From positions 1-33,697 of the IMG/VR virus record IMGVR_UViG_3300020043_002519: DNA of 33,697 bases; one strand, written 5' to 3'. The position numbers and the translations under genes were made by a program. This DNA comes from a virus. Lineage: Duplodnaviria; Caudoviricetes. The notes under the pieces were generated by a model that was not told the DNA's origin, ran no database searches, and saw nothing but the letters and a program-made list of their open reading frames with translations. This document shows positions 23,635 to 33,697 of the stretch, piece after piece; within the stretch, counting starts at the first letter, position 1, and each line of letters begins with the position of its first letter.

Positions 23635-24417
23635 ATGAGTATTACTAGAAAAAGAATGTTTTTCGATATTGAAACGTCTCCGAATATCGGTATCTTTTGG
23701 CGTTCCGGTTACAATTTAACAATCACACCTTACGATATTATCCAAGAACGTGCAATCATTTGCGTGTGTTGGAAATGGGAAGGCGAAGATGAAGTACATT
23801 CTTTGAAGTGGGATAAGAAACATTCCGATAAGAAACTACTTAAAGACTTCATTAAAGAACTTGAAAAAGCGGATGAAGCAATCGCACACAATGGGGATAG
23901 ATTCGATATTAAATGGCTTCGCACACGTGCATTATTTCACGGTGTTGAAATGAATCACACGCTAAACACAATTGACACGCTTAAATGGGCTAAAAGTGGC
24001 TTTAATTTCAATTCAAACAAACTAGATTACATCGCTCAATTCTTAGGAGTTGGTAAGAAAATGGAAACGGGCGGTTTAGATTTATGGAAAAGGGTATGTT
24101 TAGAGAAATGCCAGGATAGTTTACAGAAGATGGTAGACTATTGCAAGGTCGATGTTGAAATATTAGAAAAGGTATTCCACAAATTGAATCCGTATAGCAA
24201 ACCGAAAACACAATATGCAGTTTTAACCGGTGGCGAAAAGTTTGAATGCCCTGAGTGCGGAAAATTAGGACACCACAAAGACCGAAGAACAACGGCACAT
24301 GGTACGATTAAACACGGTATGCAATGTTCTGATCGCCGCACTTGCAGAAAGCAATGGAGTATTAACAATAAAACGTACATGGATTATCTACAATATAGGA
24401 TGCGAAACAATTTATAA
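23635..24417 (+). CDS. DEDD/RNase H-like 3'-5' exonuclease (YprB-like) with C-terminal zinc ribbon
   Basis: FFDIET, AHNGDRFD, YCKVDV; CPECG...CSDRRTC. Confidence 0.85.
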   Translation: MSITRKRMFFDIETSPNIGIFWRSGYNLTITPYDIIQERAIICVCWKWEGEDEVHSLKWDKKHSDKKLLKDFIKELEKADEAIAHNGDRFDIKWLRTRALFHGVEMNHTLNTIDTLKWAKSGFNFNSNKLDYIAQFLGVGKKMETGGLDLWKRVCLEKCQDSLQKMVDYCKVDVEILEKVFHKLNPYSKPKTQYAVLTGGEKFECPECGKLGHHKDRRTTAHGTIKHGMQCSDRRTCRKQWSINNKTYMDYLQYRMRNNL

Positions 24418-24435
24418 CCAAACAAACAACAACGG

Positions 24436-24463
24436 AAAGGCTCACTTATGGTGGGCTTTTTTT
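24436..24463 (+). terminator. Intrinsic terminator
   Basis: AAAGGCTCAC-TTATG-GTGGGCTTTT plus T run. Confidence 0.7.
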
Positions 24464-24517
24464 GTATAGTATAATATGCAATTACACATAAAAACGATGA
24501 AAAAGAATAATATAATA

Positions 24518-24588
24518 ACCGTTCATCATTGATATTTACCGTTCGTCACAATTTGAATAAATAATTGTTAATAAGTTCACTATCTTTG
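24518..24588 (+). promoter_or_regulatory. Early promoter with paired operator-like boxes
   Basis: ACCGTTCATCA (24518) and ACCGTTCGTCA (24538), TGTTAATAA (24566), TATCTTTG (24581). Confidence 0.65.
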
Positions 24589-24609
24589 TAGAAACCAAAT
24601 GTAAGAGAT

Positions 24610-24846
24610 ATGAATTTACAAGCACTAAAAATCAAAGCCGATTCGATGAGTTTCCTTATCCGGCAAATCGAAGTATGCCAAGCGGAAATTAACCGCTTAG
24701 AAAATCGTAAACGCATTATGACTGAACTAAACGAAGAGGGGTTTGTATTTGAATATACAGCACACGACTTCGAAGAGGTTGAATCTGAACTATCCGACTG
24801 GAGAAGAGGAATTTTACAGTACACAAATCAAATAGAAAAGTTATGA
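24610..24846 (+). CDS. Hypothetical protein
   Basis: First ORF after the promoter; coiled-coil character. Confidence 0.65.
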   Translation: MNLQALKIKADSMSFLIRQIEVCQAEINRLENRKRIMTELNEEGFVFEYTAHDFEEVESELSDWRRGILQYTNQIEKL

Positions 24847-25013
24847 ATCCACTAACTAAATGGCTACAAAGCCAAACGAAACCAACGCAAGCGGAGAACA
24901 GCTATACAGAACCGAAGCGAATTAAAATACAGTCAACAGTTGACTTAGGTAAAGGTCTTAGCTTTAACGAGAAAGCCGAGCATATTTTTAAACAAATAAA
25001 AGAATTGAGATGA
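24843..25013 (+). CDS. 56-aa hypothetical protein (not in ORF track)
   Basis: MNPLTKWLQSQTKPTQ...; ATGA overlaps at both ends and fills the gap exactly. Confidence 0.65.
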   Translation: MNPLTKWLQSQTKPTQAENSYTEPKRIKIQSTVDLGKGLSFNEKAEHIFKQIKELR

Positions 25014-25441
25014 AGGTAGGAGATAAAGTAACGTTTAGAAGATGGACTGATTCAGAAGAAACTGGATTTACATTTGTAGGGGAAAAACATATTGGAAAAG
25101 AATGCACTGTTTTAAAAGTGGATGGTAGTGATAATACGTTATTATTAATGCCTAATAAAGCTAATTCTTTTTGGATTCCAAATGTGGCTATTCAACAAAT
25201 AAAACACGAAAGAATTGGATGCAAACCATTAGATCCACTACCTAAAAAAGACAAAATTGTTAAACGTGTTTTAAAAGCATTTAAGCAACGTTCTGATATC
25301 GGAATAAAGAAGTACAACACAACGCTAGAAAGAACCGATCTAAGCACATTAGAATGGCTCACGCATCTACAAGAGGAAATGATGGATGCAACACTTTACA
25401 TTGAACGATTAAAACAAGAATATGACGCCACAACAAATTAA
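25010..25441 (+). CDS. Two-domain protein: SH3/KOW-like N-terminus plus all-alpha NTP pyrophosphatase-like C-terminus
   Basis: MKVGDKV N-terminus; RSDIGIKKYNTTL..WLTHLQEEMMDATLY with an EExxD motif. Confidence 0.5.
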   Translation: MKVGDKVTFRRWTDSEETGFTFVGEKHIGKECTVLKVDGSDNTLLLMPNKANSFWIPNVAIQQIKHERIGCKPLDPLPKKDKIVKRVLKAFKQRSDIGIKKYNTTLERTDLSTLEWLTHLQEEMMDATLYIERLKQEYDATTN

Positions 25442-25703
25442 CCAATTAGAAACGGTTACGCGTATTCAATGCTTAATGCAATGCGTATTGTACCAAATAG
25501 ATGAACTATCGAGCGACACTATATATAAGCGCGAACATAAGCAACGATTTGAGAATTTCTATACATACATATCAAAACTTGTCGAAACGCTCACAGATGG
25601 ATTTAAAAGCGAAGATAAGCAAGTACAGAAAGAAATGGAAAGTTACGTTAAGATATGTAACGAGATTGAAGAAATATTAACTAAGGTAACAATTGAAAGA
25701 TGA
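25422..25703 (+). CDS. Hypothetical protein
   Basis: 93-aa ORF overlapping its neighbours. Confidence 0.65.
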   Translation: MTPQQINQLETVTRIQCLMQCVLYQIDELSSDTIYKREHKQRFENFYTYISKLVETLTDGFKSEDKQVQKEMESYVKICNEIEEILTKVTIER

Positions 25704-26185
25704 TTAGAGTAGATTTAAAACTGTTTAAGGATTATATTGATAGTATGGGCTTTAATCAGTATACACGTAAACGAAGAGTAGTTTATTCTAGGTATGTGTG
25801 TTTCAAATTCATGAGAGATTATGGATATACATTTGAACATATTGGAGAAATGTTTGATAAGTCGAATGAAGTAGGTAAGTTAGATCATGCTACTGTATTG
25901 GCAGGTGTTAATAAATACCATGAGTTAAAATGGTATGCAGACTTTAAAGAGATTAAAGAGGATATTGAAGTAGTGTTAAAATCATTCACTTATAAGCAAT
26001 CTATATTTGATATTACTCAATACGACTTATCATTATTCAATCTTACTAGTATAGAGCGAAACATACTAGAATGTACAACAATTGCAGACTTTACAGTGTT
26101 GAAAAATATTGTTATAAAATCCAAAATATTACCTAACTTAGCTGAATCTAAAGTTTCTAACGATTCTTTTCATTTGGTAGGTTAG
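25700..26185 (+). CDS. DnaA C-terminal-like HTH DNA-binding protein
   Basis: TRKRRVVYSR, TFEHIGEMF and LDHATVL resemble the DnaA domain IV signature (DHTTV). Confidence 0.65.
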   Translation: MIRVDLKLFKDYIDSMGFNQYTRKRRVVYSRYVCFKFMRDYGYTFEHIGEMFDKSNEVGKLDHATVLAGVNKYHELKWYADFKEIKEDIEVVLKSFTYKQSIFDITQYDLSLFNLTSIERNILECTTIADFTVLKNIVIKSKILPNLAESKVSNDSFHLVG

Positions 26186-26219
26186 GTTTTAAGCGCGTCT
26201 GTAATGGATGCGCTTTTTT
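26145..26219 (+). ncRNA. Candidate antisense small RNA
   Basis: TAACTTAG promoter-like element at 26134, seed CTTTTCATTTGGT at 26166-26178 and a terminator; 5' end approximate. Confidence 0.4.
26191..26219 (+). terminator. Intrinsic terminator
   Basis: AAGCGCGTCT..GGATGCGCTT plus T run. Confidence 0.75.
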
Positions 26220-26223
26220 AATA

Positions 26224-26292
26224 ACCACTCAACACGTATAAAAACCGTTCAACACAAATTGAAAAATAGAATGTTAATAAATAGTAATTTCA
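26224..26292 (+). promoter_or_regulatory. Promoter region with paired operator-like boxes
   Basis: ACCACTCAACA (26224), ACCGTTCAACA (26244) and TGTTAATAA (26272), same spacing as at 24518. Confidence 0.55.
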
Positions 26293-26316
26293 CATAAACA
26301 AATAAATAAAAACCAA

Positions 26317-26391
26317 ATGAAAAGTAAGATTAAAACACTAAAAGAATGGATCGAAGTTGTTAACCCTAAACCTATCAGCTATGAATTATAG
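26317..26391 (+). CDS. 24-aa leader peptide (not in ORF track)
   Basis: MKSKIKTLKEWIEVVNPKPISYEL*; A-rich leader; overlaps the helicase ATG. Confidence 0.5.
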   Translation: MKSKIKTLKEWIEVVNPKPISYEL

Positions 26392-27748
26392 TGATTTCGT
26401 TCAACAAAAGAAACATTCGGTAGGTAGTTTTGGATTTACTCCTAACTACATTCCTGAAATGGCTTTCGACTTTCAAAAGCATATTATAGAGAAAGCAATT
26501 GAGAAGGGACGCATGGCTATTTTTGCAGATACCGGACTAGGTAAAACACTTATTCAACTATCAATTGCAAAAAACATTATTCAGCACACAAATAAGAAAG
26601 TATTGATATTAACTCCGTTGGCAGTTGCGTTTCAATTTATTATCGAAGCTGAAAAATTAGGAATTGACGATATAGAGTATTCAAAAGACGGAAAGCATAC
26701 AAAGAAAATAGTACTATGCAACTACGAACGATTACATTATTTCGATTCAAATGATTTCGAGGGTGTAATATTAGATGAAAGTTCGATATTAAAAAACTTC
26801 GACGGTAAAATTAAGAACCAAGTAAACGCTTTCATTAAGAAAATACCGTATCGTTATTGCTCAACAGCCACTCCTAGTCCGAACGATTTTATCGAATTAG
26901 GAACTACAAGCGAGGCACTAGGTTACATGGGTTATATGGATATGCTAGGTAAGTTTTTTAAGAACAATCAAAACTCAGTAGATTCAAATAATCGTAACAT
27001 AGGTGAAAAGTTCTATTTAAAGCCACACGCTGAAAATGATTTCTTTGCATGGGTTAATCAATGGGCTATGATGGTTAAAATGCCATCCGATATAGGGTTT
27101 TCAAATGATCGTTACATATTGCCAGAACTAATAGTAAATAAGCATATTGTAGAAAATCAGTCTTTAATTGATGTTAATGGTCAAGTTCAAATGTTTACAC
27201 CTATAGCAAAGTCAATGACAGAGGTTAGACACGAACAAAAGCAAACTGAGTACAAACGATGTGAAAAGGCTATTGAATTAGCAAGTGGAAAAACATCTGT
27301 TTATTGGTGCAATACAAATAACGAAAGTAAACTACTTCGAGAAATGGATTCGAACGCGGTTGAAATTATCGGTAGTCAGTCAATCGAAAAGAAAGAAGAA
27401 ATACTTTTAGCATTTGCAAACGGTGAAATAGAAAGACTAATTACAAAGGCTAAAATGACTTCAATGGGTTTGAACTGGCAACATTGTCAACACTCAGTAT
27501 TCTTTCCTACATGGAGTTACGAACAATACTACCAAGCTATTAGACGCTTTTGGAGGTTCGGACAAACTAAAGACGTAACTATTGATATGGTTATTTCGGA
27601 CGGTCAAACTAGAGTAGTCGAAGCATTACAACAGAAAACACAAAAAGCAATTGAATTGCACGAAAACTTAACGCGTAACGTTAACAGAACTTTCGAACAC
27701 GTTACAAAAGAATTTAACAAAGAAATCATTAAACCTCTATTTTTATAA
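26381..27748 (+). CDS. SF2 (SNF2-like) helicase/ATPase
   Basis: DTGLGKT, ILDESS, STATP, MGLNWQ and QAIRRFWRFGQ; ATG at 26381. Confidence 0.9.
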   Translation: MNYSDFVQQKKHSVGSFGFTPNYIPEMAFDFQKHIIEKAIEKGRMAIFADTGLGKTLIQLSIAKNIIQHTNKKVLILTPLAVAFQFIIEAEKLGIDDIEYSKDGKHTKKIVLCNYERLHYFDSNDFEGVILDESSILKNFDGKIKNQVNAFIKKIPYRYCSTATPSPNDFIELGTTSEALGYMGYMDMLGKFFKNNQNSVDSNNRNIGEKFYLKPHAENDFFAWVNQWAMMVKMPSDIGFSNDRYILPELIVNKHIVENQSLIDVNGQVQMFTPIAKSMTEVRHEQKQTEYKRCEKAIELASGKTSVYWCNTNNESKLLREMDSNAVEIIGSQSIEKKEEILLAFANGEIERLITKAKMTSMGLNWQHCQHSVFFPTWSYEQYYQAIRRFWRFGQTKDVTIDMVISDGQTRVVEALQQKTQKAIELHENLTRNVNRTFEHVTKEFNKEIIKPLFL

Positions 27749-27750
27749 TC

Positions 27751-28788
27751 ATGAAGAACAAAGTAAAAGATCAAACGATTACAGAAAACTACGCACTATA
27801 CAACAGCGATTGTATGCTAGTATTACCAACTTTAGGAGACGAAAGTATAGACCTATCTGTTTATAGTCCACCGTTCGCAGGGTTGTACAATTACTCTAGT
27901 TCTGAATTAGACTTTTCAAATTGCGAAAGTAAAGAACAGTTTTTAGAGCAATACGAATTTTTAATTAAAGAGATTGCAAGGGTAACAAAACCAGGACGTA
28001 TAAGCGCGGTGCATTGTACGGATGTATTCGATAACACTTGCCGTCTTTGGGACTTTCCTAACGAGATCATTCGATTACATACTAAGTACGGTTTTGAATA
28101 TCGCAACCGTATTACAATTTGGAAAGAGCCTTTGAAAGTTCGTATGCGTACAATGGTACAATCGTTAATGCATAAATTCATTGTAGAAGATTCGACAAAG
28201 TGTTTTACAGCGATGCCTGACTATGTTTTAGTATTTACTAAAAAAGGCGAAAACAAAGTACCCGTAACTCATCCTTTTGGGATTAATCACTACGCAGGAG
28301 AAACACCAATTTTACCAAACATATTAAGAGCGTGGAACAATGCAAATAATACAGACTTTAACTCTGAGCAACTCTGGGAACATTTAAATATTATCAATGA
28401 GGACGATAAAATAACTAAATTGAATCACTACATTTGGCAGCGTTATGCCTCTTCTGTTTGGGACGATATAAGAATTGACAATGTTTTACCGTTCAAAGAT
28501 TCAAAGGAAGAGGACGACGAGAAACACGTACACCCGTTGCAATTAGATGTAATTGATCGTATTGTTGAATTATACTCTAATCCTGGCGAAGTTGTTTTAA
28601 CTCCATTTATGGGTGTAGGTAGCGAAGTATTTAGCCCCGTTTCAATGGGTCGTAAAGCGATTGGAATTGAATTAAAAGATAGCTATTATAAACAAGCTAT
28701 TTTGAATTGTCAAGATGCTGTAAAACGTTTCAAAGCGAAGGTAAAACAAATCAGTATTTTAGATCAAATCGAAGAAACTGAAATGTAA
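27751..28788 (+). CDS. Amino DNA methyltransferase (N4C/N6A, beta-type order)
   Basis: Catalytic SPPF precedes SAM-binding TPFMGVGS; KHVHPLQLDVI. Confidence 0.88.
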   Translation: MKNKVKDQTITENYALYNSDCMLVLPTLGDESIDLSVYSPPFAGLYNYSSSELDFSNCESKEQFLEQYEFLIKEIARVTKPGRISAVHCTDVFDNTCRLWDFPNEIIRLHTKYGFEYRNRITIWKEPLKVRMRTMVQSLMHKFIVEDSTKCFTAMPDYVLVFTKKGENKVPVTHPFGINHYAGETPILPNILRAWNNANNTDFNSEQLWEHLNIINEDDKITKLNHYIWQRYASSVWDDIRIDNVLPFKDSKEEDDEKHVHPLQLDVIDRIVELYSNPGEVVLTPFMGVGSEVFSPVSMGRKAIGIELKDSYYKQAILNCQDAVKRFKAKVKQISILDQIEETEM

Positions 28789-29108
28789 TGAAAATACATC
28801 TACAAATCAAACCCTTGTCAGTCAATGAAGCCTGGCAGGGGCGTAGATTCAAAACCGATAAATACACCGCTTACGAAAAGTTAATGCGTTCAATGCTTCC
28901 TAAATGCGAAATAAAGGACTTTACACAGCTAAAAATAACGTAGGGCTTTTCAAACATGGCAAGCGACATCGACAACCCAACTAAATTGGTGCTAGATATA
29001 CTACAAAAACAGTACGGTGTGAATGATCGCGACATAGTGCATTTAGTTTTGCACAAAAAAAAGGTTGCGAAAGGTAAAGAATTTATTGAAATTTGGTTTT
29101 ACGATTGA
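28788..29108 (+). pseudogene. rusA: RusA-like Holliday junction resolvase with one in-frame TAG (28941-28943)
   Basis: KPLSVNEAWQG...KIT*GFSNMASDIDNPTKLVLDILQKQYGVNDRDI; DIDN..K..D and ND motifs; TAATG-coupled start. Confidence 0.75.
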
Positions 29109-29117
29109 AATATTTTG

Positions 29118-29125
29118 TATATTAG
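29118..29125 (+). promoter_or_regulatory. -7 promoter element variant (TATATTAG)
   Basis: Immediately upstream of the structured leader. Confidence 0.5.
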
Positions 29126-29130
29126 CAGAC

Positions 29131-29214
29131 GAATCGTGCAGGATTCTGATAGGTAAAAACATTCAAACCCTTTGGGAAAGTAGGACTGCACTCCGAAATT
29201 CCAAAGGGTTTTTT
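29131..29214 (+). ncRNA. Structured leader RNA with kissing loops, loop-E motif and U tract
   Basis: Two hairpins with complementary loops GTGCAG/CTGCAC; AGTA/GAA internal loop; 13-bp basal stem followed by T6. Confidence 0.65.
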
Positions 29215-29228
29215 ATTTAAAATTTATT

Positions 29229-29459
29229 ATGAAAAAAAGAATTATTATCGTGAACTTGAAAGAGTTTTTTCACTTTGGTATTGATAAACCGTTTTCAATA
29301 CTTGCCGAATTAGAGAAGATTGTTTATGATTCAGAATCTTACACCGAAACTATTCAAATTGAATATAGAGGTTGTGTGTTTGACTTTGTATTTCAAGAGG
29401 CACGTATAGAAAAAAATGGGCTTGTAATAGTCAAATATTTGATTAGTAATATATTTTAA
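29229..29459 (+). CDS. Hypothetical protein (AT-rich)
   Basis: 76-aa ORF between the leader RNA and the replication initiator. Confidence 0.55.
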   Translation: MKKRIIIVNLKEFFHFGIDKPFSILAELEKIVYDSESYTETIQIEYRGCVFDFVFQEARIEKNGLVIVKYLISNIF

Positions 29460-29470
29460 ATATAAAGTAT

Positions 29471-30184
29471 ATGAGTATCGGATATATAAAACTTCATCGT
29501 TCATTAATTGAATGGCAGTACTGGGACGATCATAATACAACAAGGCTTTTAATTTACTTTTTAGTATCTGTTAATTATGAATCGAAAAGATGGAAAGGAA
29601 TTGATATAAATTGCGGTTCTATGGTAACGTCTTTTGATAAAATATCAATAGCAACGGGGCTTTCAGTTAAGCAAGTTAGGCGTTCAATTAAAATTTTAAT
29701 TGATTGCAAGGAAGTAACACAAGTAACGACAAACAAATTTCAGCTTATAACCCTAGTTAAATGGGCAGAATTGCAAGTTGAAGAAAATAAAAGGGCAACC
29801 AAAGGACAAACAAAAGACAATCAAAGGGAAGGTCAAAGGGCAACAACTAAAGAAGTTAAAGAAGAAAAGAATAATATACAGATTGAAAACTTCTTAAATT
29901 GGTTCAATGAATCAATAGAAAAAAAGACGGGAAAAAAAGGAAAGTTTAAAATTCTATCAAAGACGGATGAAAGCAACTTTAAAAAAATAAGGGCTTCATA
30001 TGAGTTTCAAGATTTTGTAATAGCTTTCAATAGCTTTTGGGTTAATCAATGGGCAATTGAAACAAACAACAGAACACCGTCACACTTCCTTAGAGTTGAT
30101 AACTTTAATAAATACTTGAATCAAATTAGCGGTTCGAATACAGCCCCACGTTTAACAATGATAACAATTGCAGACCATGATTAA
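29471..30184 (+). CDS. Phage replication initiator
   Basis: GYIKLHRSLIEW N-terminus with wHTH, repetitive linker, C-terminal TPSHFLR..NFNKYLN; precedes the helicase. Confidence 0.8.
   Translation: MSIGYIKLHRSLIEWQYWDDHNTTRLLIYFLVSVNYESKRWKGIDINCGSMVTSFDKISIATGLSVKQVRRSIKILIDCKEVTQVTTNKFQLITLVKWAELQVEENKRATKGQTKDNQREGQRATTKEVKEEKNNIQIENFLNWFNESIEKKTGKKGKFKILSKTDESNFKKIRASYEFQDFVIAFNSFWVNQWAIETNNRTPSHFLRVDNFNKYLNQISGSNTAPRLTMITIADHD
29790..29844 (+). repeat. Iteron-like repeats (putative replication origin)
   Basis: Five imperfect 10-12-nt units starting AAAG (AAAGGGCAAC twice) inside the initiator gene, followed by an A-rich tract. Confidence 0.55.
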
Positions 30185-31199
30185 GAAGTTATCAGAAGTT
30201 AGAAACGAACTAGATCACTTGCATAAAGTTGGAATAGAACAAGGTAAGGATGTTGGATGGAGTTGGGAACAATTCCCGTACACCGTTAAACTCGGATCGA
30301 CTACATACATAGCAGGCGCACCCGCATCCGGTAAATCAGAGTTTTGGTTTGAGATTCTTATAAACCTTTCTTGTTTGCATGGATGGAAGCACGTAATTTA
30401 CAGCCCTGAAACGGGTTCGCACGTGGATATTTACAGCGAGTTAATGCACAAATTCATTGGTAAGCCTTACGTTAAAGGTAATTGGATGATGAACGAAGTT
30501 GAAAAATTGACTGCCGAACGGTTTATTGAAAAGCATTTCTTCGTATTTGATGACCAAAGCGAAATGACTGCAAAGAATTTCTATGAGTTTATAGATGAGT
30601 TTGAAAAGCAACATAACATAACTATCCAAACCACAACAGCCGACCCATGGAACGAATTAAAATCGGACTTTAAACCCGAAGATTTAGGGCGTGAAGATAT
30701 GTTTTTAAGTAGGGTATTAGGGGACGTTCGTAAACACGCGAAGAAAACCAATAAGCATCATTGCATAATTACACACGTTCGAGATCAAAGACTAGAGAAA
30801 AGCCCCGAAGGAACGTACTACTATCCAATTCCAACGGCTAGAGATTTGGCAGGTGGTCAAACGTGGTTTAGAAAAGGAATGAGTATGATAATGTTTTGGC
30901 GTCCACCTAAAGGATTTGAAGTTGAACCAGGAGTTATTGCAGAAGATAATGAGGTTCACGTTAAGATTGTAAAGACCAAACCAAAAGGAACAAGTAAGAA
31001 CGGTACTTATAAATTCTTTCTTAATATTTCAGCATACCGTTACTACATGAAGGATTTTGTAGGCAAAGAGATTTATTCAGATCGTGGTGCATACGACACC
31101 AAACCTAGCAACAACTTTCAAACGGGCGTAGCGTTCAAACCATTACCGATGAATACAGAATTTGATATAACACCTTTAACCGATGAAACACCATTTTAA
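30177..31199 (+). CDS. SF4 (DnaB/T7 gp4-like) replicative helicase
   Basis: Walker A GAPASGKS, YSPE, ADPWN, ITHVR, DLAGG and KIVKTK. Confidence 0.8.
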   Translation: MIKKLSEVRNELDHLHKVGIEQGKDVGWSWEQFPYTVKLGSTTYIAGAPASGKSEFWFEILINLSCLHGWKHVIYSPETGSHVDIYSELMHKFIGKPYVKGNWMMNEVEKLTAERFIEKHFFVFDDQSEMTAKNFYEFIDEFEKQHNITIQTTTADPWNELKSDFKPEDLGREDMFLSRVLGDVRKHAKKTNKHHCIITHVRDQRLEKSPEGTYYYPIPTARDLAGGQTWFRKGMSMIMFWRPPKGFEVEPGVIAEDNEVHVKIVKTKPKGTSKNGTYKFFLNISAYRYYMKDFVGKEIYSDRGAYDTKPSNNFQTGVAFKPLPMNTEFDITPLTDETPF

Positions 31200-31201
31200 T
31201 C

Positions 31202-31630
31202 ATGAAGATAGAGTATTTTCAAACATCATTTGAAACGAAGGTTAATCTAGCAGATGCTTTTATTTCGGATTTAACCGTTAAGTATTGTGAACAACAGATG
31301 AAGATGAACCAACCGCGTAAAGCATTGGAGTTTTCAAGTAAGGTTTACAAAGTTCAAGAAGTATTTATATCAATCCGTTCCGTTTTTAGACGTGCTGAAA
31401 ACGATAACAACAAACTTCTAAAAGAAAACGCAGAACTTAAAAAGCGGTTACACGAATACGAACGAACAGATAAGGCACTGAACGAATTGAAACCTAATAC
31501 AGAACTTGAAGCAAAGTACCGAGATGAGATGCTAAGTTTCAAAGATAAGTACCAAATGCGAATCCAAGAACTAGAAATTGAAAACGATCAGTTGTTAAAG
31601 CAGTTGATAAAATTAAATCAAAACACATGA
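31202..31630 (+). CDS. Hypothetical coiled-coil protein
   Basis: 142-aa ORF in the operon. Confidence 0.65.
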   Translation: MKIEYFQTSFETKVNLADAFISDLTVKYCEQQMKMNQPRKALEFSSKVYKVQEVFISIRSVFRRAENDNNKLLKENAELKKRLHEYERTDKALNELKPNTELEAKYRDEMLSFKDKYQMRIQELEIENDQLLKQLIKLNQNT

Positions 31631-32298
31631 AAACATACAAAATTTTAAACCTATACGCTTGCCTTGGAGGTAACCGATACAAGTGGGACGAAGTAGCTAA
31701 AGAAGCAGGGATTGAAATTGAAGTTACTGCTATTGAATGGGATGAAGAACTTGCTAGGTTATACCAGGAAAGATTTCCAAATGATATAGTAATAGTAGAT
31801 GATGCACACCAATATCTGTTAGATCATTACAAAGAATTCGATTTCATTTGGTCAAGTCCTCCTTGTCCAAGTCACTCAAGAATGAGAAAAACAAATACCG
31901 GTGATGGAGATAGAAAGAGTAAAGCCACATATCCAGATATGAAGTTATATCAGGAGATAATATTTTTAGATAATTTTTTTGATGGAAAGTATGTTGTTGA
32001 AAACGTTATCCCATATTACGAGCCATTAATTCGTGCGCAAGAAAGAGGACGGCATTTATATTGGGCTAACTTCACTTTACCAGGATCATTGAATGACAGA
32101 AGAGCTAATAATTTTATAAAGGCAAAGCAATCAGAACTTGAGAAATTCCACGAAATAGATTTATCAACATACAAAGGAACGCAGAGAAAAGATAAAATTG
32201 CCCGTAACCTGGTAGACTACGAAGCAGGAAGAACTATATTTGAAACGGCTTTAGGTATAATCAGAAAGAAGGATGTTAGACAAACCGAACTATTCTAA
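31627..32298 (+). CDS. C5-cytosine DNA methyltransferase (short phage type)
   Basis: NLYACLGG, WSSPPCP (catalytic PC), VENV and RGRHLYW. Confidence 0.85.
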   Translation: MKTYKILNLYACLGGNRYKWDEVAKEAGIEIEVTAIEWDEELARLYQERFPNDIVIVDDAHQYLLDHYKEFDFIWSSPPCPSHSRMRKTNTGDGDRKSKATYPDMKLYQEIIFLDNFFDGKYVVENVIPYYEPLIRAQERGRHLYWANFTLPGSLNDRRANNFIKAKQSELEKFHEIDLSTYKGTQRKDKIARNLVDYEAGRTIFETALGIIRKKDVRQTELF

Positions 32299-32300
32299 AA

Positions 32301-32363
32301 TGACGAACGGTCAAATAACTATTTAAACGGCAAACCACTATCCAAACCGAATCCATATCTTTG
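32301..32363 (+). promoter_or_regulatory. Promoter with inverted operator-like boxes
   Basis: TGACGAACGGT (32301) is the exact reverse complement of the 24538 box; partial box 20 nt later; TATCTTTG at 32356. Confidence 0.6.
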
Positions 32364-32384
32364 TTGAAACCAAATGAGAAAAAT

Positions 32385-32570
32385 ATGAAAGAAGCACTAA
32401 ATTACATCGAACAAGAATTGACACTACAAAGATTCTTAATCGAAAAGTTCTATGATGAACTAGGTAAATCAGATTTAAACATTGCTAAGATGCACTGGGA
32501 TGCTGAAATACGAATGGCAAAAGCACAGATAACACAGTTAGAAAACGTTAAAACATTATTGACGAGATGA
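32385..32570 (+). CDS. Hypothetical protein
   Basis: ATG at 32385 after the promoter and A-rich leader. Confidence 0.6.
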   Translation: MKEALNYIEQELTLQRFLIEKFYDELGKSDLNIAKMHWDAEIRMAKAQITQLENVKTLLTR

Positions 32571-32878
32571 GAATAATTAACTACGACGAAACGGATAGAA
32601 TAGCGGATTGCTCAATGCAACGCGGTTCGAGAGTGTACGATGTTCAGATAGTGAACATCGAGTATTGCACAGTGTACGATGCGATTACAGAAGAAAGCGA
32701 TATTGACTTAACCGAGTTTACCGCTACCGAATACGACAACGAAAGCGATACGTTTATACCGCTTACACTTACCAATGATGAGATATACCAATTCAAACGT
32801 GGACTACTTGAATACATCGACTTCGAAGATGAAAGCGAGATGTTCGATAGTGGAGATCGTGAGGGGAGTTGTTGGTGA
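32567..32878 (+). CDS. Acidic hypothetical protein
   Basis: ATGA-coupled; very Asp/Glu-rich. Confidence 0.65.
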   Translation: MRIINYDETDRIADCSMQRGSRVYDVQIVNIEYCTVYDAITEESDIDLTEFTATEYDNESDTFIPLTLTNDEIYQFKRGLLEYIDFEDESEMFDSGDREGSCW

Positions 32879-32948
32879 TAACGTTTTGCAACTATACGCA
32901 CCTTGGATATGTACGTTTTTGCGTATAGATGCTGTTAGGTGTAGTATT
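32871..32948 (+). repeat. attC-like palindromic site 1
   Basis: TAAC (32879) .. GCAACTATACGCA / TGCGTATAGATGC .. GTTAGGT (32934). Confidence 0.65.
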
Positions 32949-33330
32949 TTTTAACAATGTAAATTTATAATTATGACAATATTTGAACAAATAAGAAATA
33001 GTAGAAAGTCAACTGACGGGTTTTTATATCAAGTTTCAAAAGAAGATTATAATCAAATAAGAGATGATTATAACTATGATGAACAAAGAGTACCTATTCA
33101 TCCAATGCACCAATTTTATATTGATAATTATGGTAAACAATTTCATTATGAGAAATATATCGAATGTATTTTAAATTACCAACTTAAAGAAGATTATGAA
33201 TATAAAGTAATTATTAACGACCAATTTAAAGACCCAACTATTATAAAGGTTTTCATTGTCGTTCGGGTGTGTTCGTAATATTGCACCTAACAGTCGTGCA
33301 GGCGATGGCTTTAGTCTCGCTTGTGCTTTG
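32935..33330 (+). mobile_element. Integron-like gene cassette
   Basis: Starts at G|TTAGGT, carries a single ORF, then ACCTAAC-hairpin-G|TT; the ends are complementary. Confidence 0.55.
32973..33278 (+). CDS. Cassette-borne hypothetical protein
   Basis: 101 aa; visibly more AT-rich than the flanking genes. Confidence 0.65.
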   Translation: MTIFEQIRNSRKSTDGFLYQVSKEDYNQIRDDYNYDEQRVPIHPMHQFYIDNYGKQFHYEKYIECILNYQLKEDYEYKVIINDQFKDPTIIKVFIVVRVCS

Positions 33331-33339
33331 TTAACCGAC
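33277..33339 (+). repeat. attC-like palindromic site 2
   Basis: ACCTAAC (33285) .. GTGCAGGCGA / TCGCTTGTGC (with G-T pairs) .. GTTAACC (33330). Confidence 0.55.
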
Positions 33340-33362
33340 GTTTCAATGTCGGAAATAATTAG

Positions 33363-33370
33363 TATATTTG
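33363..33370 (+). promoter_or_regulatory. Bacteroidota -7 promoter element (TATATTTG)
   Basis: Exact TAnnTTTG match followed by two AAAACCAAAT leader copies. Confidence 0.6.
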
Positions 33371-33395
33371 AAAACCAAATAAAAACCAAATAGAG

Positions 33396-33697
33396 ATGAG
33401 TACAGAAACAAAAACACACTGGAAGAAATTAAAGAATCCGCTTTACTTAGGAGCGTATGACTTTCAACCGAAAGAAGAACGAACAGTAACGATTAAAGAA
33501 GTTATTGTCGAATCAGTAAAGAACACAGACGGAAAGTCAGAGGAATGTACCGTTGTGCATTTAGTCGGTTCGAAACCGTTTATTTGCAATTCAACCAACG
33601 CGAAAGCAATTACGAAGATAACCGGATCGCCTTATATCGAAGAGTGGCAAGGTAAACAGATTTGTTTATTTACGCAAACTATCCGAGCGTTTGGAGA
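33396..33697 (+). CDS. Conserved phage protein, possibly ssDNA-binding/recombination (3' truncated by window)
   Basis: MSTETKTHWKKLKNPLYLGAYD...NSTNAKAITKITGSPYIEEWQGKQI; open to the window end. Confidence 0.6.
   Translation, partial: MSTETKTHWKKLKNPLYLGAYDFQPKEERTVTIKEVIVESVKNTDGKSEECTVVHLVGSKPFICNSTNAKAITKITGSPYIEEWQGKQICLFTQTIRAFG

Follow-up and report, generated by a model that had tools for sequence, protein, structure and literature searches.

A portable hairpin-bearing gene cassette in a phage genome and a candidate integron-like recombination system of Bacteroidota

Background

Integron cassettes and their attC sites are the closest described counterparts of the locus reported here. 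In the accessible text of PMC2727003 and PMC12901181, a cassette comprises one promoterless ORF and an imperfect hairpin, with R'' and R' boxes that are complementary within the cassette, a crossover in the R' core, an unpaired central loop and a variable terminal loop. The cassette that we describe agrees in each of these features, and its hairpin (site 1) also has the G after the AAC of R'. Relatives of the locus further resemble the integrons described there in having an attI-like non-hairpin site beside the recombinase gene. The attC definition of PMC2727003, as far as the accessible text goes, includes two or three extrahelical bases in the R''-L'' arm; none are present here, where the loop is 5x1 or 5x2, and the site geometry also differs from that of aadA7 as printed in the accessible part of PMC9892861.

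Qi et al. 2023 (PMC9892861) reported CALINs in virulent phages, including Polaribacter phage P12002L. Going by the accessible portion of that paper, the P12002L CALIN is similar to our locus in that attC-type sites are carried by an integrase-less Bacteroidota phage with DNA methyltransferase cargo, and P12002L_attC1 has the same TAAC...GTTA build as the class described below. That portion treats the sites as ordinary attC and contains no dedicated recombinase, inverted ORF rule, empty and filled alleles or docking class. Cassettes can also enter attG secondary sites away from the platform, at short GTT-type cores (Loot et al. 2024, as cited in the accessible part of PMC12901181), and in this our locus is similar; unlike attG, which is an incidental site in the genome, the likely target here is a conserved hairpin element that unrelated phages have in common.

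On the side of the enzymes, the available part of Cury et al. 2016 (PMC4889954) sets aside recombinases without an IntI domain near attC sites, and that of Neron et al. 2022 (PMC9024848) names one complete integron in Bacteroidetes proper. In the inverted-integrase integrons of Treponema, as given in the available part of PMC4889954, the recombinase is co-directional with the array, as it is in three host arrays of our class (L086, L087 and L089), but those integrases are classed as IntI, unlike the Bacteroidota enzyme described below, which has no IntI insertion. The accessible parts of PMC8138268, PMC8618304, PMC13616975 and PMC2864571 do not describe the system. We found no description of a dedicated recombinase, inverted phage cassettes or a docking class in the open-access literature, with subscription journals largely outside this search.

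Results and discussion

Genome and locus

The window, by which we mean the whole 33,697-nt stretch of DNA that was analysed (G000), is an entire virus record, linear and 98% complete according to CheckV. It encodes terminase, portal, tail, lysis, helicase and methylase functions with all main ORFs on the + strand. The cassette locus lies near the right end of the record, after the ORFs at 32361-32570 and 32567-32878 and before the gene at 33396 (Table 1). The host probably belongs to Bacteroidota, judging from the site family and from TAnnTTTG elements before genes, which we take to be the promoter consensus of that phylum both for this assignment and for the promoter-like elements of the table. 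TAnnTTTG is absent between 32364 and 33362, and the ORF inside the cassette is, as an earlier note on this DNA had claimed, AT-rich and without such a promoter of its own. Transcription of the cassette likely starts from the predicted element upstream of the two resident ORFs, if that consensus holds. TAnnTTTG together with a similar AAACCAAA stretch precedes small ORFs at 24581-24602, 32356-32377 and 33363-33380, and these three elements are likely a phage early-promoter repeat.

Table 1. Coordinates of the features of the cassette locus, as positions in the window
Feature	Position	Strand	Length	Remarks
Promoter-like element, TAnnTTTG	32356..32363	+		Predicted; upstream of two resident ORFs
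Resident upstream ORF	32567..32878	+	103 aa	Stop codon abuts left crossover; outside mobile unit
Site 1, cassette-borne attC-type hairpin	32879..32937	+	59 nt	TAAC 32879-32882, GTTA 32934-32937
Mobile gene cassette	32882..33290	+	409 nt	Hairpin 1, ORF and matching end; both borders within TAAC
Cassette end adjoining hairpin, R''-box arm	32934..32948	+		Complementary to 33277-33291; minus strand RYYYAAC
Cargo ORF	32973..33278	+	101 aa	26% GC against 38% in the window; no TAnnTTTG consensus
Far cassette end, R'-box arm of predicted circle	33277..33291	+		Minus strand GTTRRRY; contains right crossover
Site 2, resident hairpin, likely docking site	33288..33333	+	46 nt	TAAC 33288-33291, GTTA 33330-33333
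Promoter-like element, TAnnTTTG	33363..33370	+		Right of site 2, before resident gene starting 33396 (PHROG 21613)

The protein encoded upstream of the cassette has no relatives in the viral collection, and its ORF is uncovered in the runs that carry the cassette. The downstream gene has 16 relatives (28-67% identical), in which we saw no site by eye in the 260 nt upstream; at such identities they are too distant to serve as empty alleles and were dismissed as such. Immediately to the right of the GTTA of site 2 begins a small inverted repeat (33335-33352, 5-bp arms, 8-nt loop). It may be what is left of a unit that had no ORF, or else a regulatory stem in front of the promoter-like element at 33363. 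Two DNA methylase genes of the genome (27751-28788 and 31627-32298) lie outside any site found by our strict hairpin detector, which is conservative and missed site 2 itself.

The cassette recurs with identical borders among different neighbours

The interval 32882-33290 is a portable cassette that recurs with identical TAAC borders amid different neighbours. When the contigs of 8 of the 24 listed sequencing runs were compared with the window, the whole unit was found in five of the eight, from four studies, over 32878 or 32879 to 33291, at 98-100% identity and with unlike flanks. The match spans 32878-33291 in X1 (0 differences) and X2 (5), 32879-33291 in X3 (5) and 32878-33295 in X4 and X5 (6 each), and contigs have loose ends at 33291. 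At least three different left flanks occur among the whole-unit contigs (X1, X3 and X4/X5), and the four runs compared over a long stretch gave no cover at 32300-32859 or 33420-33697. Partial pieces were found in X6 and X8, where starts also fall at 32877-32878, and internal and right-end pieces in X7. X1 also holds a sister contig in which the two cassette ends enclose a different stretch of 264 nt, and L034 and L042 have the hairpin and ends of the site 1 cassette with different ORFs. A GenBank phage search returned no record covering 80% of the query, and among the matches listed (30 of 43) all were weak and short, with E of about 0.5. All the sequence elements that the earlier note described are present where it placed them, and its proposals of a mobile cassette and of accessory genes being loaded into phages are both supported.

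The borders are not those first proposed. Because the shared contigs span from the TAAC of site 1 to the TAAC of site 2, hairpin 1 lies inside the unit and hairpin 2 outside it, and by analogy with attC chemistry the exact cut would fall at AA|C within TAAC. The earlier note had instead drawn the unit as 32935-33330, cut at the G|TT of the right arms and carrying hairpin 2. The window alone yields a self-complementary circle in both registers, and the flanks of a modelled empty allele can pair with a 2-nt shift, which would suit that drawing; against it, the contigs of other runs diverge at either border exactly where a left arm has its TAAC, every whole-unit contig has hairpin 1 and ends within 4 nt of the TAAC of site 2, the insertions in relatives lie at TAAC, and one X1 contig has site 2 alone in other flanks. 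We find that register barely credible. The circle junction derived from it was the wrong one to look for, since the unit carries hairpin 1, and the two sites differ in role: site 1 travels, and site 2 is the resident, likely target.

The cassette ends are complementary, and the sites form a bulge-free hairpin class

Site 1 is built of TAAC, a 5x1 unpaired loop, a stem with one mismatch, a 19-nt loop and GTTA, with its + strand corresponding to the attC bottom strand, and it folds better than shuffled sequences on both strands (z -2.75 on +, -3.03 on -). The match between outer arms across the two sites, which the earlier note pointed out, was listed independently by a repeat finder as an inverted repeat of 32932-32948 with 33277-33293 (17 nt, 88%). 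The ten bases beyond the core form eight Watson-Crick and two G-T pairs on the + strand (10/10 with G-T), and the ACCTAAC and GTTAGGT boxes are complementary within the cassette, as the boxes of integron cassettes are. Read on the minus strand, the unit runs G|TTAGGT, ORF backwards, ACCTAAC, hairpin, G|TT, which is the anatomy of an integron cassette with its gene reversed. A further pairing that had been proposed, of gttggt with accgac, exists only when shifted by 2 nt and reaches 3/10 in register, though the shifted form does occur in the modelled empty allele as best folded.

The same pattern extends to a family of sites. A 20-nt pattern of site 1 matched 28 viral loci and 11 genome loci, and all 11 of the latter are Bacteroidota by record title, in agreement with the suggestion of a distinct Bacteroidota site class. 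A right arm is present in 27 of the viral loci, some of which are duplicates; in 22 of these the 12 nt after GTTA match the downstream TAAC end at 8-10/12, compared with 6/12 at most for the site's own left flank. For adjacent sites in all fetched loci, pairing of at least 8/10 is seen within cassettes in 94/143 and within sites in 9/143, against a permutation expectation for end pairing of 10.5 on average and 21 at maximum out of 143. Per cassette there are 1.07 G-T and 0.24 A-C pairs on the TAAC-first strand, an excess that marks this strand as the folded one. The G-T strand bias had been thought non-canonical; it becomes canonical once the + strand is read as the attC bottom strand.

Sites defined by their cassette ends form hairpins in 198 of 212 instances, where one site may count on both strands, as against 3/181 control TAAC/GTTA pairs. 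They range from about 40 to 160 nt, with a loop asymmetry of 3-4 nt in 177/198, and like attC they have an unpaired central spacer and variable terminal structure. The extrahelical bases of attC are missing: a single-base bulge is absent in 195/198, and the outer 11 stem positions of sites 1 and 2 contain no bulge. The orientation of the gene is also reversed relative to attC, in which the ORF lies upstream of the site on the top strand. In mostly viral cassettes the ORF is on the TAAC-first strand in 139/156, with 5 in the opposite, canonical orientation and 12 unclear; bacterial cassettes have it in the opposite, canonical orientation in 5/5 and 15/19, the other 4/19 being phage-like by longest ORF. 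The cassette of the window is a discrete mobile unit of ORF plus site with its crossover in the R' core, the + strand TAAC being the minus-strand GTTA, and the exact base is placed by the analogy above. By the IntegronFinder/HattCI definition a CALIN has at least two attC and no IntI close by; G000 has no IntI and two hairpin sites, one of them cassette-borne.

Rfam gave 0 matches at E<=1 in the window from 24000 to 33697 and, over 20 loci, a single sub-threshold match to a Wolbachia sRNA. Identity with Flavo-1 (RF01705) was ruled out, there being no Rfam match and the alignment showing a different motif.

Site 2 is a likely docking hairpin, empty or filled in related phages

Site 2 has a 4x3 loop, a 10-pair stem with three G-T pairs and an 11-nt terminal loop. 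Since by itself it folds no better than shuffled sequences (z 0.06 and -0.50) and its most stable fold is another one, the case for its reality rests on its family. A 17-nt left-arm pattern found 38 viral loci, and in 33/34 distinct contexts found by the left arm alone the GTTA arm is present at a fixed offset; changes in the stem mostly preserve pairing. The left arm also shows an AAC-7-TA spacing.

In related phages, hairpins of the site 2 class occur empty or filled exactly at this TAAC. In the empty docks L050, L061 and L075 the stop of a gene runs straight into the hairpin. Compared with L050, the loci L047 and L071 have an additional 777 nt at TAAC, made up of two TAAC-bounded units, with a left flank that is 100% identical over 64 nt, and L077 has an additional 1049 nt. 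Likewise, L064 has 824 nt more than the empty L066, whose junction L068 and L069 share, and different inserts lie between common flanks in L052/L063, L053/L067 and L046/L059. The junctions of empty and filled alleles share only the 4-nt TAAC. The comparison of relatives that the earlier note called for yields empty and filled alleles with different inserts, although at TAAC and not at G|TT. Its self-complementary empty site is not supported: real empty alleles pair at just 4-6/10 in register, with 1-4 Watson-Crick pairs, and the modelled allele pairs with a 2-nt shift. Site 2 is likely the target where the cassette was inserted. We also considered arrival of site 2 by a cut at its other arm, which would leave a bare GTTA upstream; none was found within 1.6 kb in six empty alleles, and the 2/35 walks that ended at a "bare" GTTA both probably reflect missed hairpins.

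Alternatively, site 2 might be an attC left by a cassette that was domesticated long ago and has a decayed or distant far end, so that the insertion was an ordinary site-by-site event. The retention of both TAAC and GTTA arms in 33/34 contexts fits such an origin, and the window stops 364 nt beyond site 2, which would leave the far end outside it. The right flanks of the class, however, are backbone common to related phages; a matching cassette end was found in 0/23 distinct ones within 1450 nt, and none within the roughly 2.4 kb examined, compared with 15/22 for site 1, and the loop is 4x3 and not 5x1 or 5x2. We hold this origin to be doubtful; it concerns only where site 2 came from and is compatible with the rest of our preferred reading.

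One could also see the hairpins as RNA elements, terminators or processing sites, among which modules were swapped by homologous or illegitimate recombination at short repeats, routes that Qi et al. raised for phage attC capture in the accessible part of PMC9892861. T-rich runs follow the stems of the site 2 class, which end transcription units, and the region lies among replication genes of the phage. Yet the junctions share TAAC alone, and the cassette-specific pairing of ends over hundreds of bases has no role in termination. Neither hairpin is matched by Rfam or listed by a scan for intrinsic terminators (short G+C-rich stem, loop of 3-8 nt, T-run), their loops of 19 and 11 nt lying outside its range. 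Such an account seems to us very unlikely, and site 2 may double as a terminator.

Cargo of the cassettes

The homologues of the cargo protein form five clusters at 68-92%. It has no Pfam, PHROG or NCBIfam family, no usable Atlas match and no relatives in the viral collection. Its structure model (pLDDT 60) shows no clear fold match: the best VIA match (Z 5.2, rmsd 4.2 over 82 residues) is below the trust level, as are AcrID1-like viral proteins at Z 4.4-4.7 among the tied fold matches. The name "aminopeptidase", given by the source to one homologue, is without support. Our best guess, held with low confidence and drawn from the company it keeps, is an accessory protein for interaction with the host or its defences. 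Another homologue, the 139-aa P0004, extends 38 residues beyond the usual stop and perhaps reads through a neighbouring site. A scan of metagenomes with the cargo found one locus, L017:2337-2640, a 68% relative broken after 72 codons. By eye, the row of genes around it is very AT-rich and lacks cassette ends, and it is possibly the source or a decayed copy of the cargo gene.

A Pfam family is assigned to 23 of the 140 viral cassette ORFs scanned, of which 13 encode DNA methyltransferases, two Mom proteins and eight other products. For the cassette ORFs of L018-L174, taken from the first Met, 52/140 have their start within the hairpin, so that the reading frame crosses the GTTA arm, and 110/140 viral ones end within 20 nt of the closing TAAC. 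The host arrays L086, L087 and L089 have long sites of about 126 nt, with TIR, NACHT/STAND, HEPN and ABC-3C-type genes in the array regions; these are likely anti-phage cargo, whereas phage cassettes carry methylases.

A recombinase family linked to the sites with fixed polarity

G000 itself has no tyrosine recombinase, as the earlier note had said of the window: a PF00589 search gave 0 matches there and was positive in 14/14 control genomes. The scan of Bacteroidota and phages that the note had suggested, for arrays and a linked tyrosine recombinase, did reveal a polarised link. Three isolate loci have complete 20-kb flanks, and in all of them the array begins with a tyrosine recombinase gene that is co-directional with it; one of the three copies, as listed, comprises only the 164-aa catalytic part. 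In G002 two recombinase copies match the catalytic half only (171-aa open frame), as truncated or split genes. A relative of the enzyme at E<=1e-55 is present in 60/201 sampled Bacteroidota genomes, the query's own included. Sites occur within 1.5 kb downstream of the recombinase in 7/26, and within up to 8 kb in 14 of the 20 top-ranked enzyme regions, where all 27 sites share one strand. For the best 80 of 198 viral recombinase relatives, 52 loci together have 166 sites on the strand of the gene, all but two lying upstream of it (164), compared with seven opposite-strand sites and 0 sites in one shuffle, duplicates included. The viral loci L095 and L096 have the host-type layout, with sites on the strand opposite to and downstream of the recombinase gene, and in this they differ from the other phage loci. 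This co-location ties the site class, in a constant orientation, to one recombinase family without the IntI insertion.

The arrays also have an attI-like element. In 20 of the 36 viral loci walked, drawn from 37 of the best 80, the array closes with a TAAC-7 nt-TA that forms no hairpin and lies 56-237 nt ahead of the gene match, and five bacterial regions have a similar non-hairpin end; G000, having no integrase gene, has no attI beside one. A fixed TAAC-N7-YANNCG motif was rejected, as it accounts for just 7/41 non-hairpin ends, about 14 of which look like missed hairpins. We read the same AAC-7-TA spacing, on the other strand, in a Shewanella attI in the accessible part of PMC9892861.

The linked enzymes score 192 and 209 bits against TIGR02249 (cut-off 265), and 208 and 211 against XerA (cut-off 220), and also miss the XerC/D cut-off. 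XerA, XerC and XerD give the best profile and PDB sequence matches; unlike these, the linked enzymes fall below all curated cut-offs and are located at the head or tail of cassette arrays. Xer recombinases act on double-stranded dif sites. Where VchIntIA (2A3V) has 52 residues the linked enzyme has 10 at the aligned position, a stretch that we take to be the IntI insertion that binds extrahelical bases. In lacking this insertion of about 42 residues and scoring below TIGR02249, the enzyme is unlike those of IntI integrons, and the missing insertion fits the bulge-free sites.

An ordinary integron cassette moved by the classical IntI of a co-occurring bacterium, with the Xer-like genes as bystanders, would also have the minus-strand anatomy RYYYAAC...G|TT. 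The accessible part of PMC9892861 reports that IntI1 recombined 5/6 phage-borne sites, one of them, attC2, from the Polaribacter phage, and recombinases without an IntI domain near attC were judged not to be IntI by Cury et al. in the available part of PMC4889954. However, the tested site that matches our class, P12002L_attC1, was the only one of the six that IntI1 failed to recombine (PMC9892861, same portion). The bulge that directs strand choice by IntI is absent in 195/198 end-defined sites, complete integrons are rare in Bacteroidetes going by the available text of PMC9024848, and the sites have a strict polarity toward a non-IntI enzyme. We judge this explanation unlikely. The cassette works like an integron cassette, but it is not a member of the IntI integrons: the enzyme has no IntI insertion, the sites have no extrahelical bases and the ORF is reversed. 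The enzyme behind it is likely integron-like and not a classical integron integrase.

A model for insertion

We put at about 75% the probability of the whole reading, in which a portable unit with TAAC borders entered site 2 at its TAAC through an integron-like tyrosine recombinase acting in trans. By integron chemistry, the + strand would fold as single-stranded DNA, and excision would yield a cassette circle whose joined ends pair with each other and lengthen hairpin 1; the modelled circle junction reaches -17.2 kcal/mol on the + strand and -12.9 on the - strand, against -9.9 in place. The enzyme would cut between AA and C, with the strand chosen by the asymmetric 5x1 loop and not by extrahelical bases. 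As the 98%-complete genome has no recombinase, the enzyme likely acts in trans, and it may come from a co-infecting phage or from the host, itself likely a member of Bacteroidota. Since the gene of a phage cassette follows the hairpin on the strand that would fold, a cassette inserted where the early unit ends would have its promoterless gene placed under the predicted promoter at 32356. Cassettes in phages also differ from integron cassettes in having their ORFs on the bottom strand behind the hairpin, and in what is probably a separate resident hairpin class as target.

Some observations weigh against this reading. The back-joint of a circle is absent from the contigs of the eight runs, although rare forms are lost from contigs. 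For this locus no empty allele was found, the upstream gene having no relatives in the viral collection. The link to the enzyme is one of co-location, with no recombinase in G000; site 2 alone does not beat shuffled sequences; and the 68% cargo relative has ordinary genes around it and no cassette ends. The longest ORF has the phage orientation in 4/19 bacterial cassettes, and a true IntI may help, since one of the two Polaribacter-phage sites was recombined by IntI1 (PMC9892861, accessible part). Nor does the reading account for the spread of docking hairpins to new loci.

Conclusions

A wider picture, which we consider evenly poised, is that of a second integron-like system in Bacteroidota and their phages, with an Xer-like enzyme without the IntI insertion and bulge-free hairpin cassettes whose genes point forward in hosts and backward in phages. 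Recombinase-free phages would keep a dedicated hairpin as landing pad where an early operon ends, draw on a shared pool and borrow the enzyme. If the link to the enzyme is true, hairpin cassette recombination needs neither the IntI insertion nor extrahelical bases, which were thought to be defining, and the step from Xer-type recombinases to integrons becomes directly testable. This locus offers a minimal substrate pair of a 409-nt cassette and a 46-nt target. The same link would explain why Bacteroidota look nearly free of integrons in surveys that require IntI, despite relatives of the enzyme in 60/201 genomes. In phages, the system would allow early regions to become mosaic with base precision and would serve the exchange of DNA-modification genes, which make up 15 of the 23 Pfam-assigned cassette ORFs.
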